A DNA stretch of 64,000 nucleotides from an uncultured Mycoplasmatota bacterium (lineage in GTDB: Bacteria; Bacillota_I; Bacilli_A; RF39; UBA660): NCBI GenBank assembly GCA_947166445.1, contig CAMVED010000001.1, positions 28,368-92,367 on the forward strand, read 5' to 3'. Shown here piece by piece: positions 6,855 to 34,928 of this stretch; the stretch's first letter is position 1, and each line of letters begins with the position of its first letter. The notes beneath the pieces are model-generated. The model was not told the origin of the DNA, searched no databases, and saw nothing but the letters and a program-made list of their open reading frames with translations. Position numbers and translations under genes: made by a program.

Positions 6855-6953
6855 CTAGATTCAATAATATGTTCTCAAAAAAGCAATTAAATTATACTAA
6901 AAAAAAATTAAAAAGGCAAATAAAAAAAAGTTATTAACAAAAATTGTTAATAA

Positions 6954-7508
6954 CTAATTGTACTTACTCATAAGTCTTTCAAAATCTATTACAATAAAAT
7001 CATTTAAAATATCGACTGTTTTAGGTAAAAATTCAGCAATAGCATCTCGCTCTTCATTACTAAATCTTCCTAAAACATAATCCTTAGTATTCATATCTCT
7101 ATTATTAGAAATACCAATTCTAAATCTTCTAAACCTATTTGTACCTAAAGATCTTTCAATATCCTTAAGACCATTATGACCACCACTTGAACCAAATAAC
7201 CTTAATCTATAGTCAAGAAAATCCAAATCAAGATCATCACTAATAACTAAAATATCAGAATAATCAATGTCATAATAATTAGCAAAACTTTGAACAACTT
7301 CACCAGATAAATTCATATAAGATTGAGGTTTGACAAATAAAATCTTTTCACCTTCTATAAATAAATCAGTATATAGAGCATTAAATTTCTTTTTATCAAT
7401 AGAAACACCTAAACTCTTAGCATAATTATCTAGTATGATAAAGCCCATATTATGACGGGTATTTTCATATTCTTTTCCAGGATTACCAAGTCCAACAATC
7501 ATCTTCAT
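6954..7508 (-). CDS. pth: Peptidyl-tRNA hydrolase
   Basis: MKMIVGLGNPGKEYENTRHNMGF. Length 184 aa. Confidence 0.95.
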   Translation of the reverse strand: MKMIVGLGNPGKEYENTRHNMGFIILDNYAKSLGVSIDKKKFNALYTDLFIEGEKILFVKPQSYMNLSGEVVQSFANYYDIDYSDILVISDDLDLDFLDYRLRLFGSSGGHNGLKDIERSLGTNRFRRFRIGISNNRDMNTKDYVLGRFSNEERDAIAEFLPKTVDILNDFIVIDFERLMSKYN

Positions 7509-7516
7509 AACATCAC

Positions 7517-8311
7517 CTATTTTCCAATATCAACAGTAACTACCTTAGAATCATCCATTTCAAGCTTACAAGATCTTTCAAAAATATCAACAGAAATAAC
7601 CTTACCTTCTTCTCCATTGTAAACATACTTTGATCCAACCTTAGGAAGACCCTTCTTATAAAAATTATAATCATCATTTTCATAAGCTAAACAACACATA
7701 AGTCTACCACAAACACCATTAATCTTCTGAGGATTTAAAGCCAAATTTTGATTCTTAGCCATATTTATAGAAACACTATTAAGATCTCTCAAAAATACAG
7801 AACAACATAATTCCCTACCGCATTGACCATATCCACCAACAATTTTAGATTTATCTCTAACACCAATTTGCCTTAATTCAATTCTAGTTTTATATATAGC
7901 AGCAAGTCTCTTAACAAGTTCCCTAAAATCAACACGTGAATCAGCCAAAAAAGTAAACATAAGTTGCTTTCTATCAAAAGTAAAACAAGCATCCAATATT
8001 TGCATATCGAGTCCAAGATCACCCGCTATAGAAATTGCTTCTTTTAAAGCATTATCAGCATCTTTTATGTTTTTTTCGTGATTAGAAATATCATTTTTTG
8101 AAGCAATTCTAACAATATCTTTAAGATCAGAATTAAGTTTTTTCTCATCAACATCAATAACATCAGTCATAACAGTACCAAATTGTTCACCCTTTTCAGT
8201 ATTTGTTATAACAAAATCGCCTTTAGCAAGTTTAAAATCACCAACTAAAAAATAATATATCTTTTTAGAGCCACTAAAACTAACACCTATAACCTTTTTC
8301 ATATCAAACAC
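7517..8311 (-). CDS. ricT: PSP1-domain protein RicT/YaaT (stage 0 sporulation)
   Basis: PSP1 Cys-rich C-terminus (CGRELCCSVF, CGRLMCCLAYE). Adjacent to holB, as in Bacillus. Confidence 0.8.
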   Translation of the reverse strand: MFDMKKVIGVSFSGSKKIYYFLVGDFKLAKGDFVITNTEKGEQFGTVMTDVIDVDEKKLNSDLKDIVRIASKNDISNHEKNIKDADNALKEAISIAGDLGLDMQILDACFTFDRKQLMFTFLADSRVDFRELVKRLAAIYKTRIELRQIGVRDKSKIVGGYGQCGRELCCSVFLRDLNSVSINMAKNQNLALNPQKINGVCGRLMCCLAYENDDYNFYKKGLPKVGSKYVYNGEEGKVISVDIFERSCKLEMDDSKVVTVDIGK

Positions 8312-9194
8312 TTCCCATACTTATAAAAAGATTATCTATAAATAAATTAATATTAACATTAAATCTTAAATCATAAATAAACTTATCAATAATTTCCATT
8401 TTCCTTATTATATCATGATAATCATTATTTTTTGCAATTTTTTCAATATCGATATCAAAAAAAGAACACTTGATATTTCTTCCAATTAAAAAATTAAGCG
8501 TGTCATAATATAAATAATATCCAAAACACAAAAATTCCCTCAAGCATTCTTTTAAATCATAAAGAGGAGAATCAGCTAAAATAGAAACACCTTTAGATTC
8601 AAACTCAAAATAAATATCATAAAACTTTTTAACATATGAATTAACAAAATCATCATATCTAATACCAAAATCGTTATCATATAAAGAAACAAAAATGCTT
8701 TCATAAACATTATCATCATTAATTAAGCTAACAAGTTGACAACGAGAAACAATAGTAGGCAAAACATTAATAGAACTGTTGCAAAGTAAAATAGCAATAA
8801 CATCACCTTCAGGTTCCTCAAGAAACTTAAGTAAACTATTTGCAGCACTCTTATTCATATTTTGAACATCACAAATAATATATACTTGTCTTTTATTATC
8901 GATAGATTTCATTGAAAAATCATTTTTTAAAGAAACAATATCACCTTTATTAACATAAGCATTCTCACCAATAATTTTTAAATTAGGATAATTAGAATTA
9001 TCAATTAAATTACATATTTTTTCATCATAAACACCATTACACAAGAAAAATTTAGCCAAATCAAGAGCTAAATTAAACGCATATGAAACACCATTGCTTT
9101 CAATCATATAAGCATGAGAAATATGACCTACACTATTACTATGCATAAAATAATTATAAAAAACTTTTTGTGAATCCTTATATTTATCCAACAT
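8304..9194 (-). CDS. holB: DNA polymerase III delta' subunit
   Basis: AAA+-like clamp-loader subunit. Size and synteny with ricT fit holB. The sequence itself is divergent. Confidence 0.6.
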   Translation of the reverse strand: MLDKYKDSQKVFYNYFMHSNSVGHISHAYMIESNGVSYAFNLALDLAKFFLCNGVYDEKICNLIDNSNYPNLKIIGENAYVNKGDIVSLKNDFSMKSIDNKRQVYIICDVQNMNKSAANSLLKFLEEPEGDVIAILLCNSSINVLPTIVSRCQLVSLINDDNVYESIFVSLYDNDFGIRYDDFVNSYVKKFYDIYFEFESKGVSILADSPLYDLKECLREFLCFGYYLYYDTLNFLIGRNIKCSFFDIDIEKIAKNNDYHDIIRKMEIIDKFIYDLRFNVNINLFIDNLFISMGSV

Positions 9195-9205
9195 ATAACC
9201 ACCTA

Positions 9206-9400
9206 CTAAAAAAACAAAAAATAAATAACAACAAGCATAATAAGACCAACAATACCAAATAATCCAACAACTACTATAGTAATAGCATTCAAAGGAATAA
9301 AAATATCCAAAACTACAGCCATTTTATCAAAAAGATATATAATAAACGGTGCCAATAAAAAACGTCTAAAAAAATTAATATATTTTTTCAAAGTAAACAC
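9206..9400 (-). CDS. bofA: BofA-like small membrane protein (pro-sigma-K processing inhibitor family)
   Basis: IPLNAITIVVVGLFGIVGLIMLVVI resembles BofA VPINLVTTAISGILGIPGIAALVVI. Position after recR matches the Bacillus recR-yaaL-bofA order. Confidence 0.45.
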   Translation of the reverse strand: MFTLKKYINFFRRFLLAPFIIYLFDKMAVVLDIFIPLNAITIVVVGLFGIVGLIMLVVIYFLFF

Positions 9401-9425
9401 CTCAAAAAAATATATGAACTAAAAC

Positions 9426-10028
9426 TTAATCTAAAACTTCTTTTCTATTATTAAGAGCAGATTCTAAAGTAAGAGAATCAATATAATCCATGTCAGCGCC
9501 TATTGGTATACCATTAGCAATTCTAGATATAACAACATTAGAATCATCTAAACACCTTTTAATATACATAACAGTAGTGTCAGCCTCAATACCAGATCTA
9601 GTAACAAAAATTATTTCATTAATATTAGTATTTCTTACCCTATCAAACAAACCTTTCAAATCAATATCTTCAGGCCCAATATCATCAAAAGGAGAAATAA
9701 GTCCCCCCAAAACATGATAATAACCAGAAAAGTTACCAACTTTTTCTAGAAGAAAAACATCTTTTGAATTTTCGACAACAATTAATACTGAATTATCGCG
9801 TCCTTTATCACTACAGACAAAGCACAAATCCTGATCAGTAATACAATTACAAACATCACATTTTTTGATTTTACTTTTTATATTAGAAACACTATTACTA
9901 AAATTATCAATTTCATCTTCATCAAAATCATTAAGTAAAGAAAAAGCCATTCTTTCAGCAGATTTTTGTCCAACACCAGGAAATTTTTTAAAACACTCAA
10001 TTAATTCATTAACGCATTCTGGAAACAC
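9426..10028 (-). CDS. recR: Recombination protein RecR
   Basis: HhH FPGVGQKSAERMAF, C4 zinc finger CDVCNC..CFVC, Toprim domain. Length 200 aa. Confidence 0.95.
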   Translation of the reverse strand: MFPECVNELIECFKKFPGVGQKSAERMAFSLLNDFDEDEIDNFSNSVSNIKSKIKKCDVCNCITDQDLCFVCSDKGRDNSVLIVVENSKDVFLLEKVGNFSGYYHVLGGLISPFDDIGPEDIDLKGLFDRVRNTNINEIIFVTRSGIEADTTVMYIKRCLDDSNVVISRIANGIPIGADMDYIDSLTLESALNNRKEVLD

Positions 10029-10029
10029 A

Positions 10030-10332
10030 CTACATCAATCCATTCATCATACTAGAATATTTACCCATTTTTTGTTCAGTAGTCTTATCAACCTTAGAAA
10101 AAGCATCATTTAAGGCCAAAACAACCATATCTTCAAGCATAGAAATATCATCATTAGCTAAATCCTTAGCACCATCTAAAAATTTAACTTCAACAATTTC
10201 CTTGGTACCCTTAACTTTTACAGAAACTAAAGAACTAGCACCATCAAAAATAGAATTATCTATTTCATTCTTAATACCAGTAATTTCCTTTTGCATAGCT
10301 TGAGCTTGCTTCATTAAAGCTTGCATATTCAT
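10030..10332 (-). CDS. ybaB: Nucleoid-associated protein YbaB/EbfC
   Basis: Length 100 aa. LMKQAQAMQKE N-terminus. Sits between dnaX and recR. Confidence 0.9.
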   Translation of the reverse strand: MNMQALMKQAQAMQKEITGIKNEIDNSIFDGASSLVSVKVKGTKEIVEVKFLDGAKDLANDDISMLEDMVVLALNDAFSKVDKTTEQKMGKYSSMMNGLM

Positions 10333-10344
10333 ATATACATCCTC

Positions 10345-11985
10345 CTATCTTATTTCAACAATATCATCACCAAAAACATTTTGAGCAACCTTTAAAACAT
10401 CAGAAACATTTTCGGTAGATTCATTGTCTATTATAACATCATTTTTAATATCATGTTCCATATATTCATATTTTTTACCAGCCTTTACATCAGTTACATA
10501 CTTATTTTTAAGTTTATTCCACTCATCAGTATGAACAAAAGCAATATTATAAGATTTACCCATGACTAAATTAAATAAAAGTTCAAGTTTAGTAATATTA
10601 TTATTACCATTATCAACAATAGAATCATAATCAGCAGAAATAATAACATCCTCCTTACCAACCACCTGAACAGTTGAATCTAAAAAATAAGAAACCAAAG
10701 CAGAAAATTCTTTATTATGAACATAATCATAAAATCCCTTCCACTTATTAACAATATCATTCTTTAATTCCTTATTAGCAAGAGCAAATGCATTATTCAC
10801 AACAATATCAAAGTCTTTTCGTTTTTTCACAAATGTTTGTTTGTTATCATTAACATCAGTATTAACATTTCTAAAAGACTTACTAACATTTAAATCATTA
10901 ATAGAGCTAGAAATTATTTCCCGGGAAATAATTTCATCACTGTCTTCATTTTTTTCATTAGTAGAAATAGAATTAACAATCTTTAAAATTTCAATTTCAA
11001 AAAATAACATTTGATTAAAAGAATTGCGTAAACCATTATATATATAACTAACACCATCAATAATCTTCATAAAATCATCATCTGATATAATAATTTTATC
11101 TTTATTAACAGCAAGATTACGCATATAATTCAATAATTGTTCAGTAATTATTTCGATACTCTTCCCCGAATTAACTAATTTTTCCACAAAATCGAAAACA
11201 TTATTGATATCTCCACTACAAATATTAACAAAAAGTTCAGATATAATATCAGCATCAACAAGACCAACAACATCATAAAACAATTCCTCAGTAATAACAT
11301 TAGAATAAGATAACAATTTATCTAAAAGACCAATAGAATCACGCATACCACCATTACAATAAGAAGCAATTAGAGACAAAACATTAATATCAGCATCAAT
11401 ACCCTCATTATTACAAATATTAGATAAACATTCTACAATATCTTGAACACCAATACGTTTAAAATCATAGCATTGACACCTAGAAATAATAGTCTCAGGC
11501 ACTTTATTAATTTCAGTAGTAGCCAAAATAAAAATAACATGTTCTGGAGGTTCTTCTAAAGTTTTTAACAAAGCATTAAAAGCACTTGTAGAAAGCATAT
11601 GAACTTCATCAATAATATAAACTTTATATTTTGAAACACTTGGCATTAAAACAACACTATCACGAATAGTTCTAATTTCATCAACACCATTATTCGAAGC
11701 AGCATCTATTTCAATAATATCAGGGTTACTCCTATTATTAATAAGCTTACAACTATCACATTCATCACATGGATCAAAGCCATTTAGTTTAGAGCAATTA
11801 ACAATTTTAGAGAGCAACTTAGCAATAGTAGTCTTACCTGTACCCCTAGGACCTGAAAATAAATAAGCATGCATAAATCTATTATTAGAAATAGAATTTT
11901 TAACAATTTGAACAATATATTTTTGTCCATAAATCTCATCCAATTTTTTAGGACGATATTTACGATATAAAGCAACATATTCCAT
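10345..11985 (-). CDS. dnaX: DNA polymerase III subunit tau/gamma
   Basis: Walker A GPRGTGKTT, clamp-loader motifs, C4 Zn module CDECDSC. Length 546 aa. Confidence 0.95.
   Translation of the reverse strand: MEYVALYRKYRPKKLDEIYGQKYIVQIVKNSISNNRFMHAYLFSGPRGTGKTTIAKLLSKIVNCSKLNGFDPCDECDSCKLINNRSNPDIIEIDAASNNGVDEIRTIRDSVVLMPSVSKYKVYIIDEVHMLSTSAFNALLKTLEEPPEHVIFILATTEINKVPETIISRCQCYDFKRIGVQDIVECLSNICNNEGIDADINVLSLIASYCNGGMRDSIGLLDKLLSYSNVITEELFYDVVGLVDADIISELFVNICSGDINNVFDFVEKLVNSGKSIEIITEQLLNYMRNLAVNKDKIIISDDDFMKIIDGVSYIYNGLRNSFNQMLFFEIEILKIVNSISTNEKNEDSDEIISREIISSSINDLNVSKSFRNVNTDVNDNKQTFVKKRKDFDIVVNNAFALANKELKNDIVNKWKGFYDYVHNKEFSALVSYFLDSTVQVVGKEDVIISADYDSIVDNGNNNITKLELLFNLVMGKSYNIAFVHTDEWNKLKNKYVTDVKAGKKYEYMEHDIKNDVIIDNESTENVSDVLKVAQNVFGDDIVEIR
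10914..10931. promoter_or_regulatory. Noc-binding-site (NBS)-like palindrome TTATTTCCCGGGAAATAA, extended to a 24-bp perfect palindrome, inside the dnaX CDS
   Basis: Contains TATTTCCCGGGAAATA, the B. subtilis NBS consensus. CCCGGG is rare in this AT-rich DNA. The sequence encodes EIISREII. Confidence 0.6.
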
Positions 11986-12080
11986 ACCATCACGCTCCCT
12001 ACAAAAGATATAAAATATTATAACACAGAGACATTATTAATCAAACACAAATCAATTCAAATCAAAATATTTTTTAAACA

Positions 12081-12098
12081 ATGTTTCACGTGAAACAT
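12081..12098. promoter_or_regulatory. parS site 1 (ATGTTTCACGTGAAACAT)
   Basis: Perfect match to the 16-bp palindromic parS consensus TGTTTCACGTGAAACA. Confidence 0.85.
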
Positions 12099-12110
12099 AA
12101 ACCAATAAAA

Positions 12111-12130
12111 ATTATTTCCCGGGAAATAAT
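12111..12130. promoter_or_regulatory. NBS-like palindrome ATTATTTCCCGGGAAATAAT
   Basis: 20-bp perfect palindrome containing TATTTCCCGGGAAATA. Sits 13 bp from parS site 1. Confidence 0.6.
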
Positions 12131-12196
12131 CAAAGTAAAAAAAATGTATTACTGATACATTTTCAACAACATACAATAATATTTCACAAAAAAACA

Positions 12197-12214
12197 ATGT
12201 TTCACGTGAAACAT
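12197..12214. promoter_or_regulatory. parS site 2
   Basis: Perfect ATGTTTCACGTGAAACAT. Confidence 0.85.
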
Positions 12215-12374
12215 AGTAAAATTAATTTTAACAAAACAAAAAAAGACATATATAATCCAACAAAAACAACAAGCACAAAACAACCATGAATTAAAATAAT
12301 TAAAACAAATTATTTTAATATTAAACACATAAAAAATACTTATTAACAAAAACAACATTAAATTATAAAAATCT

Positions 12375-12392
12375 ATGTTTCACGTGAAACAT
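12375..12392. promoter_or_regulatory. parS site 3
   Basis: Perfect ATGTTTCACGTGAAACAT. Confidence 0.85.
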
Positions 12393-12546
12393 ATTAAAAC
12401 AAAATAATAATATATAATAATAAATACTATAAAACTAATTATTGACTAATATTATACACAATTACAAAAAAAAATAGTTATCATCAAAATTTCAAACAAA
12501 GAGGAAACTTATTAACAATAAATAATATATTTAATTACCAAACTAT

Positions 12547-12564
12547 ATGTTTCACGTGAAACAT
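12547..12564. promoter_or_regulatory. parS site 4
   Basis: Perfect copy, immediately 3' of the tadA stop codon. Confidence 0.85.
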
Positions 12565-12565
12565 A

Positions 12566-13021
12566 TTAAAAACAATTATCATCCAATGTTTCACGTGAAA
12601 CATTAAAAGATCTAACATTTCTAAAAAAATCAGACAATAATTCATTATATTGATAAAAATCATTAAGTTTTTCATAATTAATACTAGAAATATTAACATT
12701 CAAATTATCAGAATAATTTGAATCTAATAAATATATAACTTTTTTAATTCTAGATTCACCAATAGCAGCTTCACACATCCTACATGGTTTTAAAGTAACA
12801 TACATAACACAATCATCTAAATACCAAGAACCTACTATCTTACATGCATCTATAATACACAATAATTCAGCATGATAAATAGAAACATTATCAGAATTTT
12901 TTCTATTATGATTTGCAGATAAAATCTTATTATTTTTAACAATAACTGCACCGACAGGAACATTTCCTTCATTATAAGCAATTATCGCCTCTTTTACAGC
13001 AGCATCCATAAAACTATTCAT
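12566..13021 (-). CDS. tadA: tRNA-specific adenosine deaminase
   Basis: CDA fold motifs HAELLCI and PCRMCEAAI. Length 151 aa. tadA lies near dnaX, as in Bacillus. Confidence 0.85.
   Translation of the reverse strand: MNSFMDAAVKEAIIAYNEGNVPVGAVIVKNNKILSANHNRKNSDNVSIYHAELLCIIDACKIVGSWYLDDCVMYVTLKPCRMCEAAIGESRIKKVIYLLDSNYSDNLNVNISSINYEKLNDFYQYNELLSDFFRNVRSFNVSRETLDDNCF
12586..12603. promoter_or_regulatory. parS site 5 (inside the 3' end of the tadA ORF, encoding NVSRET)
   Basis: Perfect copy. Confidence 0.85.
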
Positions 13022-13032
13022 AAAATCACCCC

Positions 13033-13050
13033 ATGTTTCACGTGAAACAT
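13033..13050. promoter_or_regulatory. parS site 6
   Basis: Perfect copy, 12 bp upstream of the tadA start. Confidence 0.85.
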
Positions 13051-13074
13051 ATATAAAAGATATATTAACATTCT

Positions 13075-13092
13075 ATGTTTCACGTGAAACAT
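13075..13092. promoter_or_regulatory. parS site 7
   Basis: Perfect copy. Confidence 0.85.
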
Positions 13093-13120
13093 AGAATAAA
13101 TAAATACTAATAAATAAAAA

Positions 13121-13205
13121 GTGCACACACATAGAGGATTTTAAGGCTGCTATCTTCCGATCCTGACCTAGTTCAACCATATGTGTTGCACAAATAGATA
13201 ATACA
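13121..13205 (-). ncRNA. ffs: Signal recognition particle RNA, short 4.5S type
   Basis: The - strand reads ..GGUCAGGAUCGGAAGAUAGCAGCC.., the conserved SRP domain IV motif. A terminal stem GUGCAACACAUA/UAUGUGUGUGCAC is followed by a U-run. A TTGACT-N17-TATTAT promoter on the - strand sits at 13236..13208, with the -35 hexamer at 13231..13236 and the -10 hexamer at 13208..13213. Confidence 0.75.
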
Positions 13206-13252
13206 ACAATACAAAAATAAAGTCAATACAAATATATAATTAATGTTTCACG

Positions 13253-13270
13253 TGAAACATATAGTATAAG
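13253..13270. promoter_or_regulatory. parS site 8
   Basis: Perfect copy, upstream of the SRP RNA promoter. Confidence 0.85.
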
Positions 13271-13310
13271 TTTAAAAAAGTGTGATTTAAATACATTTTT
13301 AAGAATTACA

Positions 13311-13328
13311 TTATTTCCCGGGAAATAT
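13311..13328. promoter_or_regulatory. NBS-like palindrome TTATTTCCCGGGAAATAT, about 50 bp downstream of the gyrA stop
   Basis: Contains TATTTCCCGGGAAATA. It could also act as a weak gyrA terminator hairpin. Confidence 0.5.
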
Positions 13329-13375
13329 TTTTTGAATAATAAAACTTATTAACAAAAAAGAGCAATGCATAAACA

Positions 13376-15844
13376 TTACTCATTTACAATTTCATCATTG
13401 TTAACAGAAGTTACTTCAGAATCATCTTCATTCTTTTCAGTTATAGTAACAGAAGTAACAAATTGATTATCTCTTAAATTCATAAGTCTCACACCTTGAG
13501 TATTTCTTCTCAAAGTAGAAATTTTGCTAACATCAAGTCTAATAATAGTACCCTCATCAGTAGTAATAATAATATCTTCATAACCAATAACAGATTTAAA
13601 TGCTACAATTAAACCATTTTTATCAGTAATATTAAGAGCTTTAACACCTTTTCCACCACGATGAGTTAATCGATATTCTTCAATATCTGTCTTCTTACCA
13701 TAACCCTTTTCAGTTACAACAAGTATTAATTCAGACTTATTAACAACTTCAGCACCGATCAATTTGGCATCAGCCATGTCAATGCCTCTTACACCAGAAG
13801 CACTTCTACCCATAATTCTAACTTCATTTTCATTAAATCTAACCATTCTACCAATATTTGAAGCCATAATAACCTCATTTTCACCAGTAGTCTTTTTAAC
13901 ACTAGTAAGCATATCACCTTCTTTTAAAGTAATAGCAATTTTACCAGACTTACGGATAGAATCAAATTCAGAAATATCTGTTCTCTTAACTAAACCATTT
14001 CTAGTAAAGAACATCAAATATTTAGCATCATCATCCTTAGCTACAGGAATAATAGTATTAACAATCTCATCTTTTTCCAAAGGTAAGATATTAACAATAG
14101 GAACCCCTTTAGATTGCCTACTAAACTCAGGAATCTCATATCCCTTAACACGATATACTTTACCTAAATTACTAAAGAACAATAAATTATCGTGAGTATC
14201 ACAAGTTATTAACATTTCAACATAATCTTCATCATTAGTAGACATCCCTTTAACACCTACACCACCACGATTTTGACTACGATATGTATCAGCGATCAAA
14301 CGTTTGATATATCCCCTTTTAGTCATTGATATTACTACATTATCATTAGGAATCAAAGACTCATCATCAATATAATCAATAGCAGTCATATCAATATCAG
14401 TACGTCTTTCATCACCATATTTATTCTTAATTTCAAGAAGTTCGTCCTTAATAATACCTAGAACCTTTTCTTCTGAAGCAAGAATAGCTTTATATTCTGC
14501 AATCTTTTCAAGAAGTTCAGCAAGTTCATTCTCAATCTTTTCACGTTCCAAACCAGTAAGTCTTCTAAGTCTCATTTCTAGAATAGCATTAGCTTGAACT
14601 TCAGTAAGACCAAATTTATTCATTAAACCAGTACGAGCTACATCATCATCTTGTGCCGCCCTAATAAGTTTAATAACTTCATCAATATTATCAAGAGCAA
14701 TCTTTAAACCTTCTAAAATATGAACTCTCTTTTCAGCTTTATCAAGATCAAATCTAGTTCTTCGAATAATAATTTCCTTTTGAAAATCAATATATTTAGA
14801 AATAATATCCTTAAGTCCTAAACTCTTAGGAACACCTTGATCAAGCATTAAAAAGTTAATACCATAATTAGTTTGAAATTGTGTATGTTTATATAAATTA
14901 TTTAAAACAATTTGAGGATTAGCATCCCTTTTCAAAGTTATAGTAATCTTAATACCATTTTTCAAATCAGTATGATAATCAGAAATACCATCAATAACCT
15001 TGTTATGAACAAGTTCAGCAACCTTATTTTTAAGTTCAGAAGTATTAACACCATAAGGAACCTCATCTATAACAATATAATTCTTACCATTTTTTTCCTC
15101 AATAGTAGCCCTACTTCTAATAGTTATAGAACCTCTACCAGTTTCATATGCCTTACGAATACCACTATTACCAAGAATAATAGCACCAGTAGGAAAATCA
15201 GGTCCCTTAACATACTTCATTAATTCATCTAAAGTAACATCAGGATTATCAATATAAGCAACACATCCATCAATAACCTCACTCAAATTATGTGGAGGTA
15301 TATTAGTAGCCATTCCAACAGCAATACCCATAGTACCATTAACCAAAATATTAGGAAACCTACTAGGTAAAATACTAGGTTCTTGCTCAGATTCATCAAA
15401 ATTAGGCTCAAAATCAACTGTATTCTTATTAATATCACGTAAAAGTTCTAATGACATTCTAGAAAGACGAGATTCAGTGTAACGCATCGCAGCAGCACCA
15501 TAACCTTCGATATTACCAAAGTTACCGTGACCATCCACAAGCATATAACGATAATTGAAATCTTGTGCCATCCTAACCATTGCTTCATAAATTGAACTAT
15601 CACCATGAGGATGATATTTCCCCATAACATCCCCAACAATTCTAGCACTCTTCTTATGAGGTTTATCAGGAGTATAACCAGATTCATACATAGAATACAA
15701 AATTCTACGGTGAACAGGTTTAAGTCCATCCCTTAAATCAGGAAGAGCACGAGAAACTATAACACTCATTGAATATTCTAGGAAAGATGTTTCAATTTCA
15801 TTTACTATATTGTTTTCTTCTAATCTATCTCTACTATGATCCAT
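13376..15844 (-). CDS. gyrA: DNA gyrase subunit A
   Basis: Length 822 aa. N-terminal [17 protein letters not shown]. Confidence 0.97.
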
Positions 15845-15855
15845 AATCTAACCTC

Positions 15856-18872
<3,017 letters not shown>

Positions 18873-18945
18873 ATTTAAAATTTAGATTTAAAAGCCTCAA
18901 ATTCGCACCAACTCCCAAAACTAGTACTCCAGTACTTACTATTAC

Positions 18946-18982
18946 ATTATATCACAAAAAAGGCATAAAAAAAACGATTTTT
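18946..18982. repeat. 37-bp direct repeat copy A (ATTATATCACAAAAAAGGCATAAAAAAAACGATTTTT) with terminator-like hairpin
   Basis: Identical copy at 19810..19846. Each copy is followed by an AAACGAT..ATCGTTT hairpin with flanking A and T runs. Confidence 0.7.
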
Positions 18983-19010
18983 ACACATTTAATCGCTTTT
19001 TTTACTATTT

Positions 19011-19784
19011 TTATCTCACTATTCTATTAGAATCATAATTCTCCAAATCTCTTGTCTTAACTAGATCACATAAAACACAATCACCATCTCTTGCAGAATT
19101 TTCTAAAGCTGAAAGATTTAAATTTTCATAAACACGAGATTGTTTATTATTTTTAATATACTCTTGCACTTGTCCTTCAACACCATAACCTTTTAAACGC
19201 ATAGAATAACCTAGATTATCTAAAGATTGCATAAAATCAGAAAACTTAACATAACCAGAAACTTTAGAATTAAGAAGATTTATAACATTTTCATTAGGTG
19301 AAAGCAGTGTTTCTGTAGGACGTGGGCTAAAAGATACTTTAACTATTGTATCTTTTAAAAGTCTCGAAGTATCATCGTTAATAACATTATATTGATTATC
19401 AACAATATGAATAAATTTTATAGAACCAGTTAAATTTATAGCACCAACAACTCCATTATTAATCAATGCATTAGATAGATATTCCATTTTATTAACAAAA
19501 TTAACATTAGAATTAGCTTCTGATATAATATCATCCACATCTCTTTTATCATAAAATGCAACACTTTTTCCGTCTCCTAGCACAACATACCTTTTAATTT
19601 CTTGACTTTTTACTTCTTCATCATTAATTTTTTCTATTTTTTTCACATTATTATCTTCTATTCTAACAGAATTACCATTCATAGTCTTTATACTATCTGC
19701 TAAATCTTGTTTACTTATTAAACCATCATTATACATTTCAAATAGTATATCCATTTTTTCTTTACTTAACATATAACACCTCAC
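19011..19784 (-). CDS. Hypothetical protein (257 aa) between recF and comK-like
   Basis: Intact ORF. No family recognised. Bracketed by the 37-bp direct repeats. Confidence 0.4.
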   Translation of the reverse strand: MRCYMLSKEKMDILFEMYNDGLISKQDLADSIKTMNGNSVRIEDNNVKKIEKINDEEVKSQEIKRYVVLGDGKSVAFYDKRDVDDIISEANSNVNFVNKMEYLSNALINNGVVGAINLTGSIKFIHIVDNQYNVINDDTSRLLKDTIVKVSFSPRPTETLLSPNENVINLLNSKVSGYVKFSDFMQSLDNLGYSMRLKGYGVEGQVQEYIKNNKQSRVYENLNLSALENSARDGDCVLCDLVKTRDLENYDSNRIVR

Positions 19785-19809
19785 ATAAAATGAATTATTT
19801 TCAAAACAA

Positions 19810-19846
19810 ATTATATCACAAAAAAGGCATAAAAAAAACGATTTTT
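19810..19846. repeat. 37-bp direct repeat copy B
   Basis: Identical to 18946..18982. Confidence 0.7.
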
Positions 19847-20307
19847 TAAAGTTTATCGTTTTTTTTATTACTTTTCCTGTTATTAGAAATAGATTCCAAC
19901 ATATTACACCTAAAAATCTGATTTTTTACTGAAAAATAAGGACAATCTACAATAACAGAATCACCATTATTAAAAACAATTTTAGATTTTTTATTATGTT
20001 TTTCTACATTTCTAATATTCTTATACGAAATCCAACCAACATTTTCAGATGCAAGAGCTTCTGTAGGAAAAAAAATAAGCTTTTGAGTTTCCTCAACAAT
20101 AACAGGAATCTTATAAACACTACCTAAAATGCTTTTTGAGCCTACTACTCTACCATCAAAACTACTTCCAAAATAATTACAACTATGTTCCATTACCTCA
20201 TATGGAGTATCATTAATAATATATTCATCATTTTTTTCGATAACTCTAGTCTTATTTTTATCAAATGGAAGAATAGCTAATGTTTCATCATTAATCTCAT
20301 ATTTCAT
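19846..20307 (-). CDS. comK: ComK-family competence transcription factor
   Basis: Aligns to B. subtilis ComK: YE.N..T.A.LP, R.IEK, SC.FFGSS, IFFPT, GWIS, FNNG. Likely start ATG at 20307 with RBS AGGGGGTGA. The listed ORF extends upstream to 20430. Confidence 0.75.
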   Translation of the reverse strand: MKYEINDETLAILPFDKNKTRVIEKNDEYIINDTPYEVMEHSCNYFGSSFDGRVVGSKSILGSVYKIPVIVEETQKLIFFPTEALASENVGWISYKNIRNVEKHNKKSKIVFNNGDSVIVDCPYFSVKNQIFRCNMLESISNNRKSNKKNDKL

Positions 20308-20454
20308 AATATCACCCCCTAAAAACAATTTTTGCAATTGCAAAAACCTTATACCACTATATAATGTCGAAAAAGATAGAAATTTGTAGAATTTATAGAA
20401 AAAATTGCAAAAAAAAAGAAATATTAACAATTATTGGTTAATATTTCTAATTTA

Positions 20455-21570
20455 TTAATAAGTTCTAATTGGTAAAATTAGAGAAACAAGATCATCATTA
20501 TCATCATTTTTTAACAAAATAGGTTTTATTTCACCAACAAATGTTAATATTACATCACTAGATTTTATAGTTTTAAGAGCATCCATCATATATTTAGCAC
20601 TAAAACTAATCTTTATTTCATCTGAACAATCAACATTCATCTTTTCTTCTACTTTACCTATTTCAAGTGACATAGATGTTACTTTCATAAGTTTATTCTT
20701 AATTTCAAGAGTAACAATATTATTATCATTATCATCATTTAATATGCTTGCCCTATCAACAACATTATAAAATTCATTAACATTAAGTTTTAATTCAAAT
20801 AAAGATTCAGTAGGAATTAAATTCTTAGTATTAGGATAAGTACCATTAATTAACCTAGATTGAAAAATAATATTATTAAATTTAAATATAATCTTATTAG
20901 AAAAGAAATGTAATTCAATTTCATCTTCAGAAAAAGATAAAAGTTTCATAAGTTCATTTAAATTCTTGCTTGGAATAATAATATCTATATCATTAGATAC
21001 CTTTTTAGAAAGTTTATATTTTCTAAGAGATAACCTATAAGAATCAGTAGCACTACATTCTAATAAATCATTATTTATCTTAATATTAACACCTGTAAGA
21101 ACAATTCTAGCTTCATCCATAGAACAAGCATAATTAGTTTGACTTATCATAGTTTTAAAATCAGAAATCTTCATATCAACAAAATCTGTTGATAAGTCTA
21201 AATTAATATCAGGATACTCTTTAGCATCAATTCCATTTAAACTAAATTCACTATTTTCTGTATAAATCATTATCTTATGATCATCAACAGTATCAATATT
21301 AATAAACTCAGAATCTAACTTTCTAATAATATCAAGAATATATTTACCTTTAATTACAATACTTCCTGTATTATCAATAATTAAATTATCACTTTTTTCA
21401 ATAAATGTTTGAATAGTAATATCATTATCAGATGCAGTAATTACTAACTTATCCTTTAATAAATCAAATTTTATTCCAGAAAGTATTGGTATAATATTTT
21501 TTGTAGAGATAGCTTTAGAAACATTATTTAAAGCTTCTAATAATAAAGTTCTTTTAATTTTTAATTTCAT
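20455..21570 (-). CDS. dnaN: DNA polymerase III beta sliding clamp
   Basis: Length 371 aa. Sits next to dnaA. Confidence 0.95.
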   Translation of the reverse strand: MKLKIKRTLLLEALNNVSKAISTKNIIPILSGIKFDLLKDKLVITASDNDITIQTFIEKSDNLIIDNTGSIVIKGKYILDIIRKLDSEFINIDTVDDHKIMIYTENSEFSLNGIDAKEYPDINLDLSTDFVDMKISDFKTMISQTNYACSMDEARIVLTGVNIKINNDLLECSATDSYRLSLRKYKLSKKVSNDIDIIIPSKNLNELMKLLSFSEDEIELHFFSNKIIFKFNNIIFQSRLINGTYPNTKNLIPTESLFELKLNVNEFYNVVDRASILNDDNDNNIVTLEIKNKLMKVTSMSLEIGKVEEKMNVDCSDEIKISFSAKYMMDALKTIKSSDVILTFVGEIKPILLKNDDNDDLVSLILPIRTY

Positions 21571-21587
21571 TTTAATTCCTTCTTTCT

Positions 21588-21716
21588 TATTTTTATTTTT
21601 ATTTTTATAGTATTTATAATAATACTGTTAACAGTGTTAATAACTATTAAAAATCATATATACCAAGGAAAAAATCAGTTTTTAAATGTTAATAATTGTT
21701 AACAGTTTTAACAAAG
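21588..21716. other. oriC part 1 in the dnaA-dnaN spacer: AT-rich unwinding element (TTATTTTTA)x3 plus DnaA-box variants TGTTAATAA at 21635 and 21687
   Basis: Tandem TTATTTTTA at 21588..21610. GTTAAC and TGTTAATAA motifs sit between dnaA and dnaN, as in Bacillus oriC. Confidence 0.6.
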
Positions 21717-23099
21717 TTATGTTAATTGTTTTTCAATATTGTTGATTGCATCATTTAAATCCTTATTAATCTTCATTTCTCTTTCAATTTTATTACAAGC
21801 ATGTATTACAGTAGCATGATTTTTACCAGAAAATTCAATACCAATTCTTTCAAAAGACTCATCTGTAAGTTTTCTACACAAATACATAGCAACTTGTCTG
21901 GGAATAGCTAAATTTGGAGTTCTTTTCTTGGATTTCATATCCTCAAATGATATCTTATAAAAGTTAGCTACACTTTTTTGTATTCTACGAATATTATTCT
22001 GATCTGTAACAGTTTCTTTTTTAGTAAAATCTCTTAAAGCTTCCATGGCAAATTCTAAAGTAATATCAGTAACTCCCATAACTGCTGAATAAGCAATAAG
22101 TCTAGTAATGGAGCCTTCAAGCTGTCTTACATCATTGCCAACATTCGAAGCTATAAATGAAATAACATCATCGTTAATAAACAAAGCTTCTCGTTTTAGT
22201 TTTTTCTTAATAATGGCAACCTTTAAATCATAGTCAGGTGGACTAATATCGACTTGTAATCCCCAAGCAAATCTTGTTCTAAGTCTATCTTCAAGGACTT
22301 TTAAATCTTCTGGAGATCTATCAGAAGAAACAATAATTTGCTTACTATCATTATATAAATTATTAAATGTGTGAAAAAACTCTTGTTGCGTCTTCTCTGC
22401 CCCTCCTAAAAACTGAATATCATCAATTAACAATACATCAACATTACGATATTTACTCTTAAAAAAAGTTGCATAATCCAAGTTATTAAAATTATTTCCT
22501 TTTCTAGCAAGACCAGTAAAGTCATTCATAAAGTCATCACTAGTAACATATAATACCCGTTTTTTAAATTTATCTTCAATATAATTACCAATAGCATGCA
22601 TTAAATGAGTCTTACCAAGACCACTATTACCATATATAAATAAAGGATTATATAAAGTACCTGGGTTTTCAGCAACAGCAAGAGCGGCAGCTTGAGCAAA
22701 TTTATTTGATTCCCCTACTACAAAACTTTCAAATGTATAATTCTTATTTAAATTTGAAACATGATCCTTAATATAAGAAGAATTATTAACACTATCATTA
22801 GTAACAGGCTGATTTATATTATCCTTCTCTTTTTTTAAAAAATCATCAACATTATCTTGTAATATATATTTAATATTATCAACATTAGTTGTTAATAAGT
22901 TATTAAAACTATCAAGAATAATATCTTTATAATTTCTATCAATATGATTCTTATACCACATAATTGGAATAACTAATCTTACATTAGTATCTTCTATACC
23001 TATAAAATCAATATTTTTAAACCATGTATCATAAGATAAAGGATCGACGATATTACTAATATTATTTAAAACTTTAGACCATAATAATTTATCATCCAT
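21717..23099 (-). CDS. dnaA: Chromosomal replication initiator DnaA
   Basis: AAA+ GNSGLGKTHL. C-terminal DNA-binding domain. Length 460 aa. Confidence 0.97.
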   Translation of the reverse strand: MDDKLLWSKVLNNISNIVDPLSYDTWFKNIDFIGIEDTNVRLVIPIMWYKNHIDRNYKDIILDSFNNLLTTNVDNIKYILQDNVDDFLKKEKDNINQPVTNDSVNNSSYIKDHVSNLNKNYTFESFVVGESNKFAQAAALAVAENPGTLYNPLFIYGNSGLGKTHLMHAIGNYIEDKFKKRVLYVTSDDFMNDFTGLARKGNNFNNLDYATFFKSKYRNVDVLLIDDIQFLGGAEKTQQEFFHTFNNLYNDSKQIIVSSDRSPEDLKVLEDRLRTRFAWGLQVDISPPDYDLKVAIIKKKLKREALFINDDVISFIASNVGNDVRQLEGSITRLIAYSAVMGVTDITLEFAMEALRDFTKKETVTDQNNIRRIQKSVANFYKISFEDMKSKKRTPNLAIPRQVAMYLCRKLTDESFERIGIEFSGKNHATVIHACNKIEREMKINKDLNDAINNIEKQLT

Positions 23100-23419
23100 A
23101 ATACCATCTCCCCACCTAAAATAAAGTATTTACCACTTAATTCAATTCTAATACATTTAATAAAAAATTAAAAGTTAAAAAAGAAATTAACATACTTATT
23201 AACATAATTGTTAACATGATTTTTCCTTTAAATACATACTATAAAATAGTTTTTAACAAATTTCAAGTGAAAATGATATTAACATGTTAACAATTAACAA
23301 ACGTTGTTAATAATAAAAAATGTTAATTAACGTTAAAATGGTTAATAACTTAAAAAATATTGACAAATCCCCTATTTTTCATATACAATAAAACCGATTA
23401 AGTTTGGAGGTGTATTAAC
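23100..23419. other. oriC part 2: DnaA-box-variant cluster (TTATTAACA 23196, TGTTAATAA 23305, TGTTAATTA 23321, GGTTAATAA 23340), plus the rpmH promoter TTGACA(23360)-N18-TACAAT
   Basis: Repeated 9-mers and their reverse complements in the dnaA/rpmH divergent region. Confidence 0.6.
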
Positions 23420-31217: not shown

Positions 31218-32573
31218 ATGAATTTAGAAAAAGAGATTTTTGATATATCATTACAAGATATAATTCCAAATAGATTTCAACCACGCGAAATATTTAACGA
31301 TAACGAACTGGCAGAATTATCAGAATCAATAAAACAACACGGAGTAATTCAACCAATAATAGTTAGAAAAGTAGGAGACAAATACGAAATAATTGCAGGA
31401 GAACGTCGTTTTAGGGCTTCACAAATGGCAGGAAAAGAAACAATACCAGCCTTAGTAAGAGATATAGATGATAAAGAAGCTGCCAAAATAGCACTTTTAG
31501 AAAATCTTCAAAGAAGCAATTTAACTCCAATAGAAGAAGCAAAAACATATCAAACAATACTAAAAATAGATAATATAACTCAAGATGAATTAGCAAATAA
31601 TTTAGGAAGATCACAATCAACAATTGCAAATAAACTAAGATTGTTAACTTTAACAGAAGAAGTTCAAACAGCACTTTTAAATTCCCAAATATCTGAACGC
31701 CATGCAAGAAGTTTATTAGGTTTAACAAATGAACAACAAATACAACTATTACACAAAACATTACAGGAAAAGCTAACAGTTAGACAATTAGATGAAGAAG
31801 TAATGAAAATGACTGGTAAAATACCAGACACTAACATAAATAATGATGTAACAACTAATAGTTTTGAAGGAGATCCGATAATGAATAATCAATTTTCAAG
31901 TTTAGGAAGTCAAAACATTAGCGTTCCAGAAGTACCAGAACCAAATGTCAACATTTTAAACACAACAATACCGTTACCAAATCAAAGCAACGAAAATGAA
32001 GATCCTGTAATAAATATACCAACAGTGGATATGCCATCGCCAGTAGGAGCAGTTCAAAATAATCAATCATTTATAAATAGCAGTTCATTCCCAAATACTG
32101 AAATGCCAATAATAAATGAAAATCAAACACCAGAAACAATAAATACTCAAGATAATAATAATTCAGTTCAAATAGAAATGCCACAAATACCTAGTGAAAC
32201 ACCAATTGAAGCAAGTATTACAGATAACAATCAACCAGAACCAATCACTAATGATGTTGTGCAAGACCAAGCAGTAATTTCAGAAGAACAACCAAAAGTT
32301 GAAAATATATTTGATAAATTAAGAGTAAATAGAGAAGAAAATCAAGAAAATAAATTCAATTTAAAAACACCTGATTTATCAAGTGTAATAGGACCACAGC
32401 CAACAAATGAACACCAAGAAGACAATTATAATGATATATATGATTTAAGATTTGCTATTAATAATTTTAGGCAAGCAGTTCAAAATACAGAAAAATTTGG
32501 TTTCAAAGTTAATGTAGACGAAAAAGATAATGGAGATAAATATCAAATAATTATAGAAATAGATAAAAAATAA
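31218..32573 (+). CDS. noc: Noc-like ParB-family protein with a long low-complexity insertion
   Basis: ParB box GERRFRAS. HTH RSQSTIANKLRLL..ISERHARSL resembles B. subtilis Noc. The rsmG-noc-soj-spo0J order holds. About 200 aa of N/Q/P/T/E-rich sequence separates it from the C-terminal dimerisation-like segment. Confidence 0.75.
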   Translation: MNLEKEIFDISLQDIIPNRFQPREIFNDNELAELSESIKQHGVIQPIIVRKVGDKYEIIAGERRFRASQMAGKETIPALVRDIDDKEAAKIALLENLQRSNLTPIEEAKTYQTILKIDNITQDELANNLGRSQSTIANKLRLLTLTEEVQTALLNSQISERHARSLLGLTNEQQIQLLHKTLQEKLTVRQLDEEVMKMTGKIPDTNINNDVTTNSFEGDPIMNNQFSSLGSQNISVPEVPEPNVNILNTTIPLPNQSNENEDPVINIPTVDMPSPVGAVQNNQSFINSSSFPNTEMPIINENQTPETINTQDNNNSVQIEMPQIPSETPIEASITDNNQPEPITNDVVQDQAVISEEQPKVENIFDKLRVNREENQENKFNLKTPDLSSVIGPQPTNEHQEDNYNDIYDLRFAINNFRQAVQNTEKFGFKVNVDEKDNGDKYQIIIEIDKK

Positions 32574-32598: not shown

Positions 32599-33933
32599 TT
32601 AATACCACATATCTGTATATAAACCATCATCTTTATATAAATCATCTAAAAGTACAGCTTGAACAAATTCATCAGAAGCCTCTTCAAAAGTATAAGTATT
32701 TATAACAGGTCCACCAAAAGTCCAAAGAGATTCTGCAACATATACATGTTCATCATCAATACCAGCAATTATAGCGATATGTCCCCAAACTCCTAGAAGA
32801 TCACCAGCTTTAACCTTTCCGGACTTAAATAACTCCACGGAAGTATCCGTTTTAACACCACCTATATCATTTATTTCATTAGTATCTTCAAGATTGTCAC
32901 CAGCACCTTTATCTCCAACATCAAATCCGCCATTTAAAATGCTCCATGAAACAAAGCCACTACAATCAAGGCCATTAGGTTTATATTGACCTTTTTTAAA
33001 TACGGTTCCCCAATCTTCATAATTTTTAAGAGGACATCCCCATATAGCAGGACCTGCAAAGGAATATTTTAAACTCTTAAACTTATCTTCATGTAAATAT
33101 AAACCTTTATGATAGTATCTTCCTTCACCATCAGCATTGTGCATACCGCCATCAATTCTTCCATTCTCAAAGAAATATTCTATTTGATAAGGAAAATCAA
33201 GCATCAAAAATCTTATAGATTCAACAACAGCAGCACGAGTACCATAACCACCAACAGATTCAATTTTATCCTTCAAGATTTCATCTAATTTATTTACTTC
33301 CTTTTTAGAATAACGATTACAAGGTAAATTTGGTTTGTTATGATTGAAATTTTTAGAACGCTTTGAAATCAAGTTAGTAACCTCAACTTCAACTTCTTTC
33401 GAATAATTATCATTAACTGTCATAATTACCTTAGTAGTTCCAACTTTTTTACCAATGACCTTATTTTTTTTAATAGAAACAATTCTATTATTCAAAGATT
33501 CATAAACAATATTTTGATTCTTACCAATTAACTTCAATTTTGGATTTAATTCTTTTTTTTCACCAAGAGCTAAATAAACCTTTTTAGGCAAATTATCGCC
33601 AATAACTAAATCATTAATTTCAAAATTTCTAACAAATACATATTTTTTTATATAAATTTTAGAAAGATTTTTATCAACCTTTAAATTACACTCATTATTA
33701 GAAACACTAAGCCATTTAATGCTACGATTATTTGTACTAAAACCACATTTTATATCACTATTTAGTTTACTAACTTTTAAAGTAAAAATATCGTCATCAG
33801 ATTCAACAACACTTAAATTGTTCAAAACATCAATATCATAAAAAGGTTTTAAGTAAAAATAGCTAACAAAAGAACTTATACTAACAGTAAAGAATAACAT
33901 AGCAAAAAAAATTAACCACCTTTTTTTCTTCAT
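32599..33933 (-). CDS. Secreted NlpC/P60 (C40) family cell-wall peptidase with N-terminal signal/TM and beta-rich domain
   Basis: Catalytic Cys motif DCSGFVSW and downstream GHIAII His motif. Length 444 aa. Confidence 0.65.
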   Translation of the reverse strand: MKKKRWLIFFAMLFFTVSISSFVSYFYLKPFYDIDVLNNLSVVESDDDIFTLKVSKLNSDIKCGFSTNNRSIKWLSVSNNECNLKVDKNLSKIYIKKYVFVRNFEINDLVIGDNLPKKVYLALGEKKELNPKLKLIGKNQNIVYESLNNRIVSIKKNKVIGKKVGTTKVIMTVNDNYSKEVEVEVTNLISKRSKNFNHNKPNLPCNRYSKKEVNKLDEILKDKIESVGGYGTRAAVVESIRFLMLDFPYQIEYFFENGRIDGGMHNADGEGRYYHKGLYLHEDKFKSLKYSFAGPAIWGCPLKNYEDWGTVFKKGQYKPNGLDCSGFVSWSILNGGFDVGDKGAGDNLEDTNEINDIGGVKTDTSVELFKSGKVKAGDLLGVWGHIAIIAGIDDEHVYVAESLWTFGGPVINTYTFEEASDEFVQAVLLDDLYKDDGLYTDMWY

Positions 33934-34148: not shown

Positions 34149-34928
34149 ATGGGAAAAGTGATTTCATTAATAAATCAAAAAGGCGGAGTAGGCAAGACAA
34201 CAACAAGTATAAATTTGGCAGCATCCCTAGCATTATTAGGTAAAAAAATACTATTAATAGATTTAGATCCACAATGTAATGCAACAACAGGAATAGGATT
34301 AAATAAAGGTGACATAGAAAAAAGTATTTATAATGTTTTTAATGGTACATCAACTATAGAAGATGCTACCTTAAAAACAAGATATAAAAACTTGTATGTG
34401 CTTCCGGCTAATATAAATCTTGCTGGTATTGATATAGAACTAGAGCAATCTAATCAAAACATAGGAGTATCTAAAGCAGAGAGATTAAAATATCACATAG
34501 ATAAAGTCAAAAAAGATTATGATTATATATTGATAGATTGTCCCCCAGCACTAGGAATAATAACAACAAATGCATTAACAGCATCTGATTCAGTAATAAT
34601 ACCGGTACAATGTGAATTCTTTGCACTTGAAGGAATAACACAACTTCTAAAAGCAATAATGTATACACAAGCAAATCTAAATCCAAATTTATCGATTGAA
34701 GGAGTACTACTTACAATGCTTGATGCAAGAACAAACCTAGGTTTAGAAGTAGTTGAAGAAATAAGAAGTTATTTTAAAGATAAAGTATATAATACAATAA
34801 TTCCAAGATTAATTAGATTGACAGAAGCCCCATCACATGGGAAACCAATAGTAGCTTATGATCCAAAATCACGTGGATCTGAAGCATATTTAAATTTAGC
34901 GAAAGAGGTGATTAAAGCAAATGAATGA
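34149..34928 (+). CDS. soj: Chromosome partitioning ATPase Soj/ParA
   Basis: Deviant Walker A KGGVGKTTT. Length 259 aa. Confidence 0.95.
   Translation: MGKVISLINQKGGVGKTTTSINLAASLALLGKKILLIDLDPQCNATTGIGLNKGDIEKSIYNVFNGTSTIEDATLKTRYKNLYVLPANINLAGIDIELEQSNQNIGVSKAERLKYHIDKVKKDYDYILIDCPPALGIITTNALTASDSVIIPVQCEFFALEGITQLLKAIMYTQANLNPNLSIEGVLLTMLDARTNLGLEVVEEIRSYFKDKVYNTIIPRLIRLTEAPSHGKPIVAYDPKSRGSEAYLNLAKEVIKANE

Follow-up and report, generated by a model that had tools for sequence, protein, structure and literature searches.

The 64,000-nucleotide stretch considered here (positions 28,368 to 92,367 of contig CAMVED010000001.1 in assembly GCA_947166445.1; hereafter the window) stems from an uncultured Mycoplasmatota bacterium and covers the region around its replication origin (oriC). 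The DNA is of low G+C content (23-33%), uses the standard genetic code and exhibits a sign switch of the GC skew at about 23-24 kb. The minus strand carries, in this order, recR, ybaB, dnaX, tadA, the gene for the small signal recognition particle (SRP) RNA, gyrA, gyrB, recF, a comK-like gene, dnaN and dnaA. On the plus strand, rpmH, rnpA, yidC, jag, mnmE, mnmG and rsmG precede a gene for a Noc-type paralogue of the partition protein ParB, which is followed by one gene on the opposite strand and then by parA and parB. The interval between gyrA and dnaX harbors a dense array of parS sites, the palindromes bound by ParB, together with Noc-binding sites (NBSs). An earlier note on this DNA had described the parS array. 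The NBSs in and beside it, as well as the Noc-type paralogue encoded at 31218-32573, were absent from that note, and jointly they constitute the unusual part of the locus.

A motif search across the window returned eight exact copies of the 18-mer ATGTTTCACGTGAAACAT between 12081 and 13260 (a span of 1180 bp), all of which fit the 16-bp palindrome TGTTNCACGTGAAACA, the canonical parS consensus, without deviation. The eight perfect copies and their match to the Firmicute consensus, as claimed in the earlier note, are thus borne out, whereas the start it gave for the last copy, 13253, is wrong and has to be replaced by 13243. From start to start, the copies follow one another at 116, 178, 172, 39, 447, 42 and 168 bp, which confirms the two tight pairs that had been described at 39 and 42 bp. 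The setting in the dnaX-tadA-SRP RNA-gyrA interval near dnaA likewise holds, with 9.8-11.0 kb between the array and the dnaA start codon, and reading by hand places the copy said to encode NVSRET in the 3′ end of tadA at 12586-12603. By chance, 0.11 matches to ATGTTTCACGTGAAACAT with up to three mismatches are expected per window, and nine matches were reached in none of 100 shuffles. A scan with the relaxed consensus TGTTNCACGTGAAACA (up to two mismatches) found no further parS-like site outside the array in the 64 kb, which, as far as the window reaches, speaks against the earlier caveat that the motif might belong to a dispersed repeat family, and the same scan found the parAB promoter to be devoid of parS. 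In the 20 kb loci read from related genomes, no additional parS was seen outside the gyrA-dnaX cluster either. The flanks of the copies are unrelated AT-rich DNA (62-76% identity), so that only the palindrome and one or two further bases are common to them. A separate metagenome contig, 99.84% identical to the window over 4.5 kb, keeps the eight sites with the spacings of the window; because this contig is independent, an assembly artefact was rejected as the source of the array.

Features of the parS and NBS cluster, of the proteins predicted to read it and of its surroundings. Coordinates refer to the window, except in the last row; L numbers denote loci of other genomes, of which L122, L124 and L125 form the four-species alignment together with the window.
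Feature	Position	Strand	Setting or assignment	Conservation or support
parS1	12081-12098		between dnaX promoter region and NBS-a; pair with NBS-a, centres about 31 bp apart	exact 18-mer; orthologous in L122, L124, L125
parS2	12197-12214		window species only	exact 18-mer; aligned position empty in L122, L124, L125
parS3	12375-12392			exact 18-mer; kept in L124 and L125
parS4	12547-12564		1 nt 3′ of tadA stop codon; tight pair, 39 bp start to start	orthologous in all four aligned species
parS5	12586-12603		within last 12 codons of tadA; encodes NVSRET	orthologous in all four species
parS6	13033-13050		adjoins tadA ribosome-binding site; tight pair, 42 bp start to start	invariant in all four species
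parS7	13075-13092		between SRP RNA gene and tadA	orthologous in relatives, 1-2 changes
parS8	13243-13260		17 nt 5′ of promoter-like -35 hexamer of SRP RNA gene	orthologous in relatives, 0-1 change
NBS-a	12111-12130		perfect ATTATTTCCCGGGAAATAAT; includes 16-bp TATTTCCCGGGAAATA	invariant in relatives
NBS-b	13310-13329		gyrA side of array	19/20 of extended site, exact 14-bp core
NBS-c	10913-10932		perfect 20-mer inside dnaX; encodes IISREII, about residues 352-358	equal dnaX position in L126/L127 and L130
ParB (Spo0J type)	34921-35796	+	predicted parS binder	TIGR00180, E=5.8e-62
ParA/Soj partition ATPase	34149-34928	+		ParA-family matches
Noc-type ParB paralogue, 451 aa	31218-32573	+	directly after rsmG; predicted NBS binder
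dnaX	10345-11985	-		annotation
tadA	12566-13021	-	inside array, tight parS pair on either side	Pfam dCMP_cyt_deam_1
Small SRP RNA gene	13105-13199	-	inside array	Rfam RF00169, 58.9 bits, E=2.2e-10
gyrA	13376-15844	-		annotation
dnaA	21717-23099	-		annotation
Tandem parS arrays of other genomes, 4-8 sites	L085 1014-1353; L017 3544-3695; L062 3246-3548; L112 2374-2614; L105 7246-7498

Upon visual reading of the sequence, ATTTCCCGGGAAAT, which is the NBS of Bacillus, was recognized twice at the edges of the array. The exact 14-bp NBS core occurs three times in the window (starts 10916, 12114 and 13313; 0.16 expected by chance), and all three occurrences fall within 10.9-13.3 kb. Each of them perfectly matches the 16-bp consensus TATTTCCCGGGAAATA, and two agree in full with an extended 20-mer, ATTATTTCCCGGGAAATAAT, from which the third (13310-13329) deviates at one of the 20 positions. 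Within the window, CCCGGG was not found outside the three NBSs. The copy inside dnaX appears to be a binding site maintained within a gene, since it recurs at the equal place in dnaX of L126/L127 and L130. The two copies that border the array sit in a 44-nt inverted repeat (12107-12150 and 13290-13333, 84% complementary). Next to either NBS, this repeat also carries a conserved AAATGTAT...ATACATTT element, perhaps a decayed parS or yet another site.

The proteins that would read these sites are encoded on the other side of oriC. The genes for ParA and ParB overlap by 8 nt, which indicates one operon, and the best solved relative of ParB is Spo0J of B. subtilis (6sdk, E=1.7e-64). ParB carries the N-terminal, ParA-stimulating motif LGRGL, the boxes GERRFRA and ENLQRE for binding of cytidine triphosphate (CTP) and a C-terminal ParB_C dimerisation domain. 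In its helix-turn-helix motif, GKSRSYITN, an arginine occupies the parS-specifying position that contacts the first parS base. Judged by these sequence features, ParB and ParA are the predicted cognate partition system of the array sites; the ParB and Soj that the earlier note had named as such, about 21 kb away from the array, are indeed the canonical pair.

The Noc-type protein reaches 297.9 bits on TIGR04285, which is below the curated cut-off of 315 yet makes this its best-scoring family, and ParB from the window scores lower on the same model (249.9 bits). Its best solved relatives are the Noc structures 7ng0 and 7nfu. A duplication of ParB, with a two-base change in site preference, is considered the origin of Noc. 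Replacement of R, T, A and G by Q, K, K and R at four positions (Q173, K179, K184 and R201 in Caulobacter ParB numbering) switches ParB from parS to NBS, and a single lysine at either of the two permissive positions is enough (Jalal et al., 2020). The window protein displays Q, K, T and R where Noc has Q, K, K and R. Given that one lysine at 179 or 184 suffices, NBS binding is the expected specificity. ISERHAR is kept in all 120 closest homologues and SQSTIANK in most of them.

The N-terminus of the protein is MNLEKEIFDISLQDIIPNRFQPR, and the alignment reveals about 23 N-terminal residues fewer than in the Noc structures. The 120 closest homologues (350-534 aa) start with MNLEKE..., 16 residues ahead of the PNRFQPR motif. 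Accordingly short, neither the window protein nor these homologues nor the proteins of more distant loci contain the N-terminal amphipathic membrane-targeting helix. Noc of B. subtilis attaches to the membrane through its first 10 residues, which form this helix; when they are missing, the protein fails to bind liposomes and nucleoid occlusion is impaired. A linker of about 160 aa, disordered, poorly conserved and rich in N, Q, P and E, contains a single conserved peptide, NIFD[KR]LRV (about residues 362-369), and leads to a conserved C-terminal domain. This layout of short N-terminus and linker is common to all 120 closest homologues.

Relatives were collected via TadA homologues (52-78% TadA identity) with equal gene order, and pieces of 10-20 kb were read. 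Comparison of the dnaX-gyrA interval, which the earlier note had proposed, revealed the cluster in all relatives inspected, including those with only 52% TadA identity: each possesses 6-8 parS and 2-5 NBSs between gyrA, tadA and dnaX. Nearly all of these parS deviate by at most one mismatch, and the 2-5 copies of the 20-mer NBS lie among the parS sites, with further copies in dnaX of L126/L127 and L130. In an alignment of the window with L122, L124 and L125, 71% of the parS columns and 97% of the NBS columns are invariant, compared to 24% of the other spacer columns. Six array sites have orthologues throughout the four species, one more is common to three, and one, parS2, is confined to the window, its lack in the three relatives being indicative of site turnover. 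Because positions are conserved amid diverged spacer DNA, and one site is window-only, the sites are taken to be maintained individually with some turnover. The parS sites are hence held by selection in related species. TadA itself comprises 151 aa in the window and 139 aa in many relatives, where the stop codon directly adjoins the pair's first parS. The tadA frame of the window (12566-12603), L124 and L125 reads through that parS and stops just short of the next.

The pairing of the two site types extends well beyond these species. A scan of metagenome contigs with the exact 20-mer NBS yielded at least 120 loci, almost all with 22-30% G+C. About 100 of the 120 listed loci carry orthologues of origin-proximal genes of the window (mfd through parB, 30-80% amino-acid identity), which places the extended NBS, as sampled, almost exclusively near oriC across a broad lineage. 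In 51 of the 120, parS is present as well, with up to 8 NBSs and 6 parS in a single locus (L250). The distance between the centres of an NBS and its nearest parS peaks at 28-29 bp in the listed loci, with a minimum of 22 bp. Several loci repeat a pair of fixed spacing, for example parS-29-NBS five times in L187, parS-30-NBS five times in L148 and NBS-28-parS four times in L141, while L139 resembles a tandem array in which parS and NBS strictly alternate every 59-60 bp. Repeated pairs with centres 28-29 bp apart were also observed in L171 and L250. Among 120 listed loci from unrelated genomes that contain tight pairs of parS, none has an NBS. The parS and NBS cluster is therefore conserved across a broad, uncultured, low-G+C lineage of Bacilli from gut- or rumen-type samples. 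Neither adjacent parS and NBS nor a Noc without membrane helix at the origin was found described in the literature searched, the coverage of which was incomplete.

Taken together, the array is probably the centromere of the chromosome, at which ParB is densely loaded and whose sites are interleaved with NBSs for a Noc-like paralogue. The eight parS would serve as loading sites; they occupy the spacers between gyrA, the SRP RNA gene, tadA and dnaX, some 10 kb to the left of oriC. In analogy to known ParB biochemistry, ParB dimers would bind each palindrome of 16-18 bp, close as CTP-dependent clamps and slide to flanking DNA, and eight loaders within 1.2 kb could build up one very dense partition complex. 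The ParB loading zone at one locus that the earlier note proposed, read here as a single, very dense one acting as centromere, remains the best reading, in view of consensus sites that are unique in the window, the presence of ParAB and the selection acting on the sites. ParA/Soj would segregate the ParB complex, which probably also loads SMC.

At the same locus, the Noc-type protein very probably loads at the NBSs in a clamp-like manner as ParB does, since the NBS-reading residues are present. Lacking the membrane helix, it would not be expected to anchor DNA at the membrane. Owing to this lack and to the concentration of its sampled sites at the origin, its most likely function is an origin- or centromere-specific role alongside ParB. 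A second clamp could stabilise or shape the ParB complex, recruit a partner via the conserved peptide NIFD[KR]LRV, or provide a coupling to replication initiation, to which a link has been reported for Noc of S. aureus. The Noc without helix may stand for an early result of the duplication that led from ParB to Noc, or for an alternative one. Conceivably, the lineage uses a two-clamp centromere in which ParB and the helix-less Noc load from adjacent sites into one mixed complex beside oriC and Noc is an origin or centromere factor instead of a genome-wide occlusion factor. We put forward this more specific proposal tentatively and give it somewhat less than an even chance.

Several points weigh against these assignments. 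On the protein side, the second parS-contacting position of ParB is a serine where most ParB proteins have a glycine, and the Noc-type protein has a threonine instead of a lysine at one of the two permissive positions. SMC is not encoded in the window, so that loading of condensin is an assumption. In the sub-lineage of the window itself, the centres of parS and NBS are 24-69 bp apart; strict geometric coupling is hence not universal. The counts of sites cover 64 kb, and further parS or NBSs may exist elsewhere. Moreover, the exact 20-mer was taken from this cluster and may under-sample scattered NBSs with other flanks, and about 20 of the 120 listed NBS loci were not placeable near an origin.

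These last points would suit an arrangement in which classical nucleoid occlusion and an ordinary centromere are adjacent by coincidence, with NBSs spread over the whole chromosome, a mere bias toward the origin and no link to ParB. With 64 kb of visible genome, a second NBS block without parS in some long contigs and about 20 unplaced loci among the 120 listed, such a distribution is conceivable. It is, however, difficult to reconcile with the parS found in 51 of the 120 listed loci, often only 22-40 bp from the NBS, with the repeated pairs of fixed spacing, with the location of roughly 100 listed loci no more than about 20 kb from oriC genes and with the 97% invariance of NBS columns beside parS. 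In addition, the protein is devoid of the helix required for nucleoid occlusion, and we consider a coincidental neighbourhood unlikely. Two further views of the NBSs were considered. A function as boundaries that fence in ParB is not favoured, as a parS is present beyond the NBS on the dnaX side and, in distant relatives, parS and NBSs are interleaved. The view that the Noc-type protein acts at the centromere only was softened in light of NBSs in dnaX, near jag-mnmE and near noc-parAB and of a minority on unplaced contigs.

As for the palindromes themselves, they could mainly be operators at promoters and 5′ ends, through which ParB or another regulator controls how dnaX, tadA and the SRP RNA gene are transcribed, with segregation as a secondary matter. 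Some parS do lie near promoter-like hexamers and the tadA ribosome-binding site, and proteins of the ParB family are able to repress transcription, KorB being among the solved relatives. Yet an operator would need fewer than eight perfect sites, one parS is located in the coding end of tadA and another just 3′ of its stop codon, and the sequence is the universal parS consensus. With a complete ParA-ParB system at hand, the promoter of which is itself free of parS, regulation as the main purpose appears highly improbable. Almost negligible, and refuted as far as the 64 kb of the window go, is the view that the copies derive from dispersed or mobile repeats, from a plasmid centromere that became integrated, or from faulty assembly. 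The identity of the 18-mers could hint at recent copying, and weak similarity reaches 30-50 nt past some copies; the flanks as such are not conserved, though, copies elsewhere in the 64 kb are lacking, and no mobility genes were found near the array. Equal positions between equal housekeeping genes in species with 52-78% TadA identity speak against such an origin as well, as does the agreement of the independent assembly. A miniature inverted-repeat transposable element or other repeat element was rejected on similar grounds, as only a palindrome of 18-20 bp is common to sites that are orthologous across species and unique to this part of the window.

The surroundings of the cluster contain a few additional peculiarities. 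Counted on both strands, the window contains 19 copies of TTATTAACA, 18 of them left of oriC at 6931-23313, including the dnaA-dnaN spacer (21635 and 21687) and the region upstream of dnaA (23196 and 23305). A perfect 12-mer around the TTATTAACA core, ACTTATTAACAA, is found at 10743, 12338, 12507, 13344, 13735 and 22889; three of its perfect copies lie within the parS and NBS cluster and are kept in relatives. The region upstream of dnaA has no canonical TTATCCACA box and is rich in TTAACA-type repeats. Going solely by its placement, TTATTAACA is probably the DnaA-box variant of this lineage. The comK-like gene (19846-20430, Pfam ComK, E=2e-36) resides between dnaN and recF, a position kept in all relatives examined, and the same interval includes an open reading frame of 257 aa without family match (19011-19784). 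Between the Noc-type gene and parA, the usual noc-soj-spo0J run is split by a gene for a 444-aa protein (32599-33933, minus strand) with no family match except a faint one to Big_2. Scans of the window detected neither tRNA genes nor Rfam families other than the SRP RNA.

A recent review of ParABS systems lists the wide variation in parS number and the clustering of the sites among the questions to be explained. With 6-8 sites packed into about 1.2-1.5 kb, the lineage described here is a natural example at the extreme; its sites are under clear selection, and individual ones are gained and lost between species. In addition, the sites of two paralogous CTP switches, ParB and Noc, are situated side by side at one locus. 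This renders several questions testable: what Noc did prior to nucleoid occlusion or does in its place, whether a single loading zone can be shared or divided up between two sliding clamps, and whether the link between Noc and replication initiation in S. aureus reflects an origin-centred role. A 1.4 kb fragment and two proteins are of a size suited to in vitro reconstitution.

With regard to known systems, the contrast between this array and most chromosomes was overstated in the earlier note. Caulobacter crescentus has its five strongest parS within 5 kb, about 8 kb from ori, Corynebacterium glutamicum has ten within 35 kb, and reviews give parS counts from 1 to about 23. As in the window, the parS of these two species are grouped 16-bp sites on one side of oriC that act redundantly as a joint ParB nucleation zone. 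The window differs by a density about 5-25 times higher, by its eight perfect 18-mers and by the interleaved sites for a second protein of the ParB family. Nor is the density unique to this genome: when one genome per species was searched for pairs of perfect parS at a distance of 10-40 bp, at least 120 stretches emerged in many phyla (Streptomyces, Collinsella, Lachnospiraceae, other Clostridia, alphaproteobacteria and more), several of which are arrays of 4-8 sites upstream of parAB. Most of the listed loci comprise 2-3 sites, and eight have at least four within 1.3 kb (six with 4, L096 with 5 and L105 with 6). In the Lachnospiraceae metagenome-assembled genome CAVBGA010000065 (L085), 8 parS are lined up at a period of 46-47 bp directly upstream of parA-parB-DUF4446-serS. 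The dense arrays of L017, L062 and L112 are located between rsmG and parA and that of L105 just after rsmG, at the end of the block. All five dense arrays that were checked for their surroundings thus belong to the parAB end of the rsmG-parA region; they come from Lachnospiraceae, other Clostridia, Acidimicrobiia and a contig labelled Nitrosopumilus, and none contains an NBS. They resemble the window array in their similar or higher density and in the equal extended ATGTTTCACGTGAAACAT core. In contrast to these regular arrays upstream of parAB, the window array is irregular, encloses tadA and the SRP RNA gene, and is separated from parAB by oriC and a distance of 21 kb.

The likeness to a plasmid centromere suggested in the earlier note does not extend beyond the principle of many binding sites within about 1 kb that form a single partition complex. 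Unlike in plasmid iteron centromeres, which are regular direct repeats next to the par operon, the spacing in the window is irregular (39-447 bp), genes (tadA and the SRP RNA gene) interrupt the array, housekeeping genes surround it, parAB is 21 kb away and the sites follow the chromosomal parS consensus. With Noc of B. subtilis and S. aureus, the window protein shares the 16-bp NBS as its predicted target, the Gln/Lys/Arg specificity residues, the CTP-binding boxes and the gene position after rsmG, but it is devoid of the membrane helix and possesses a long disordered linker. Noc of S. aureus binds 41 loci across about +/-700 kb, and the NBSs of B. subtilis are described as scattered around the chromosome, whereas NBSs of the window type, as sampled, are concentrated beside parS and oriC (within about 20 kb). 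Hence, the dense parS array is a further case of a known type, and the new part is the composite of sites for two proteins.

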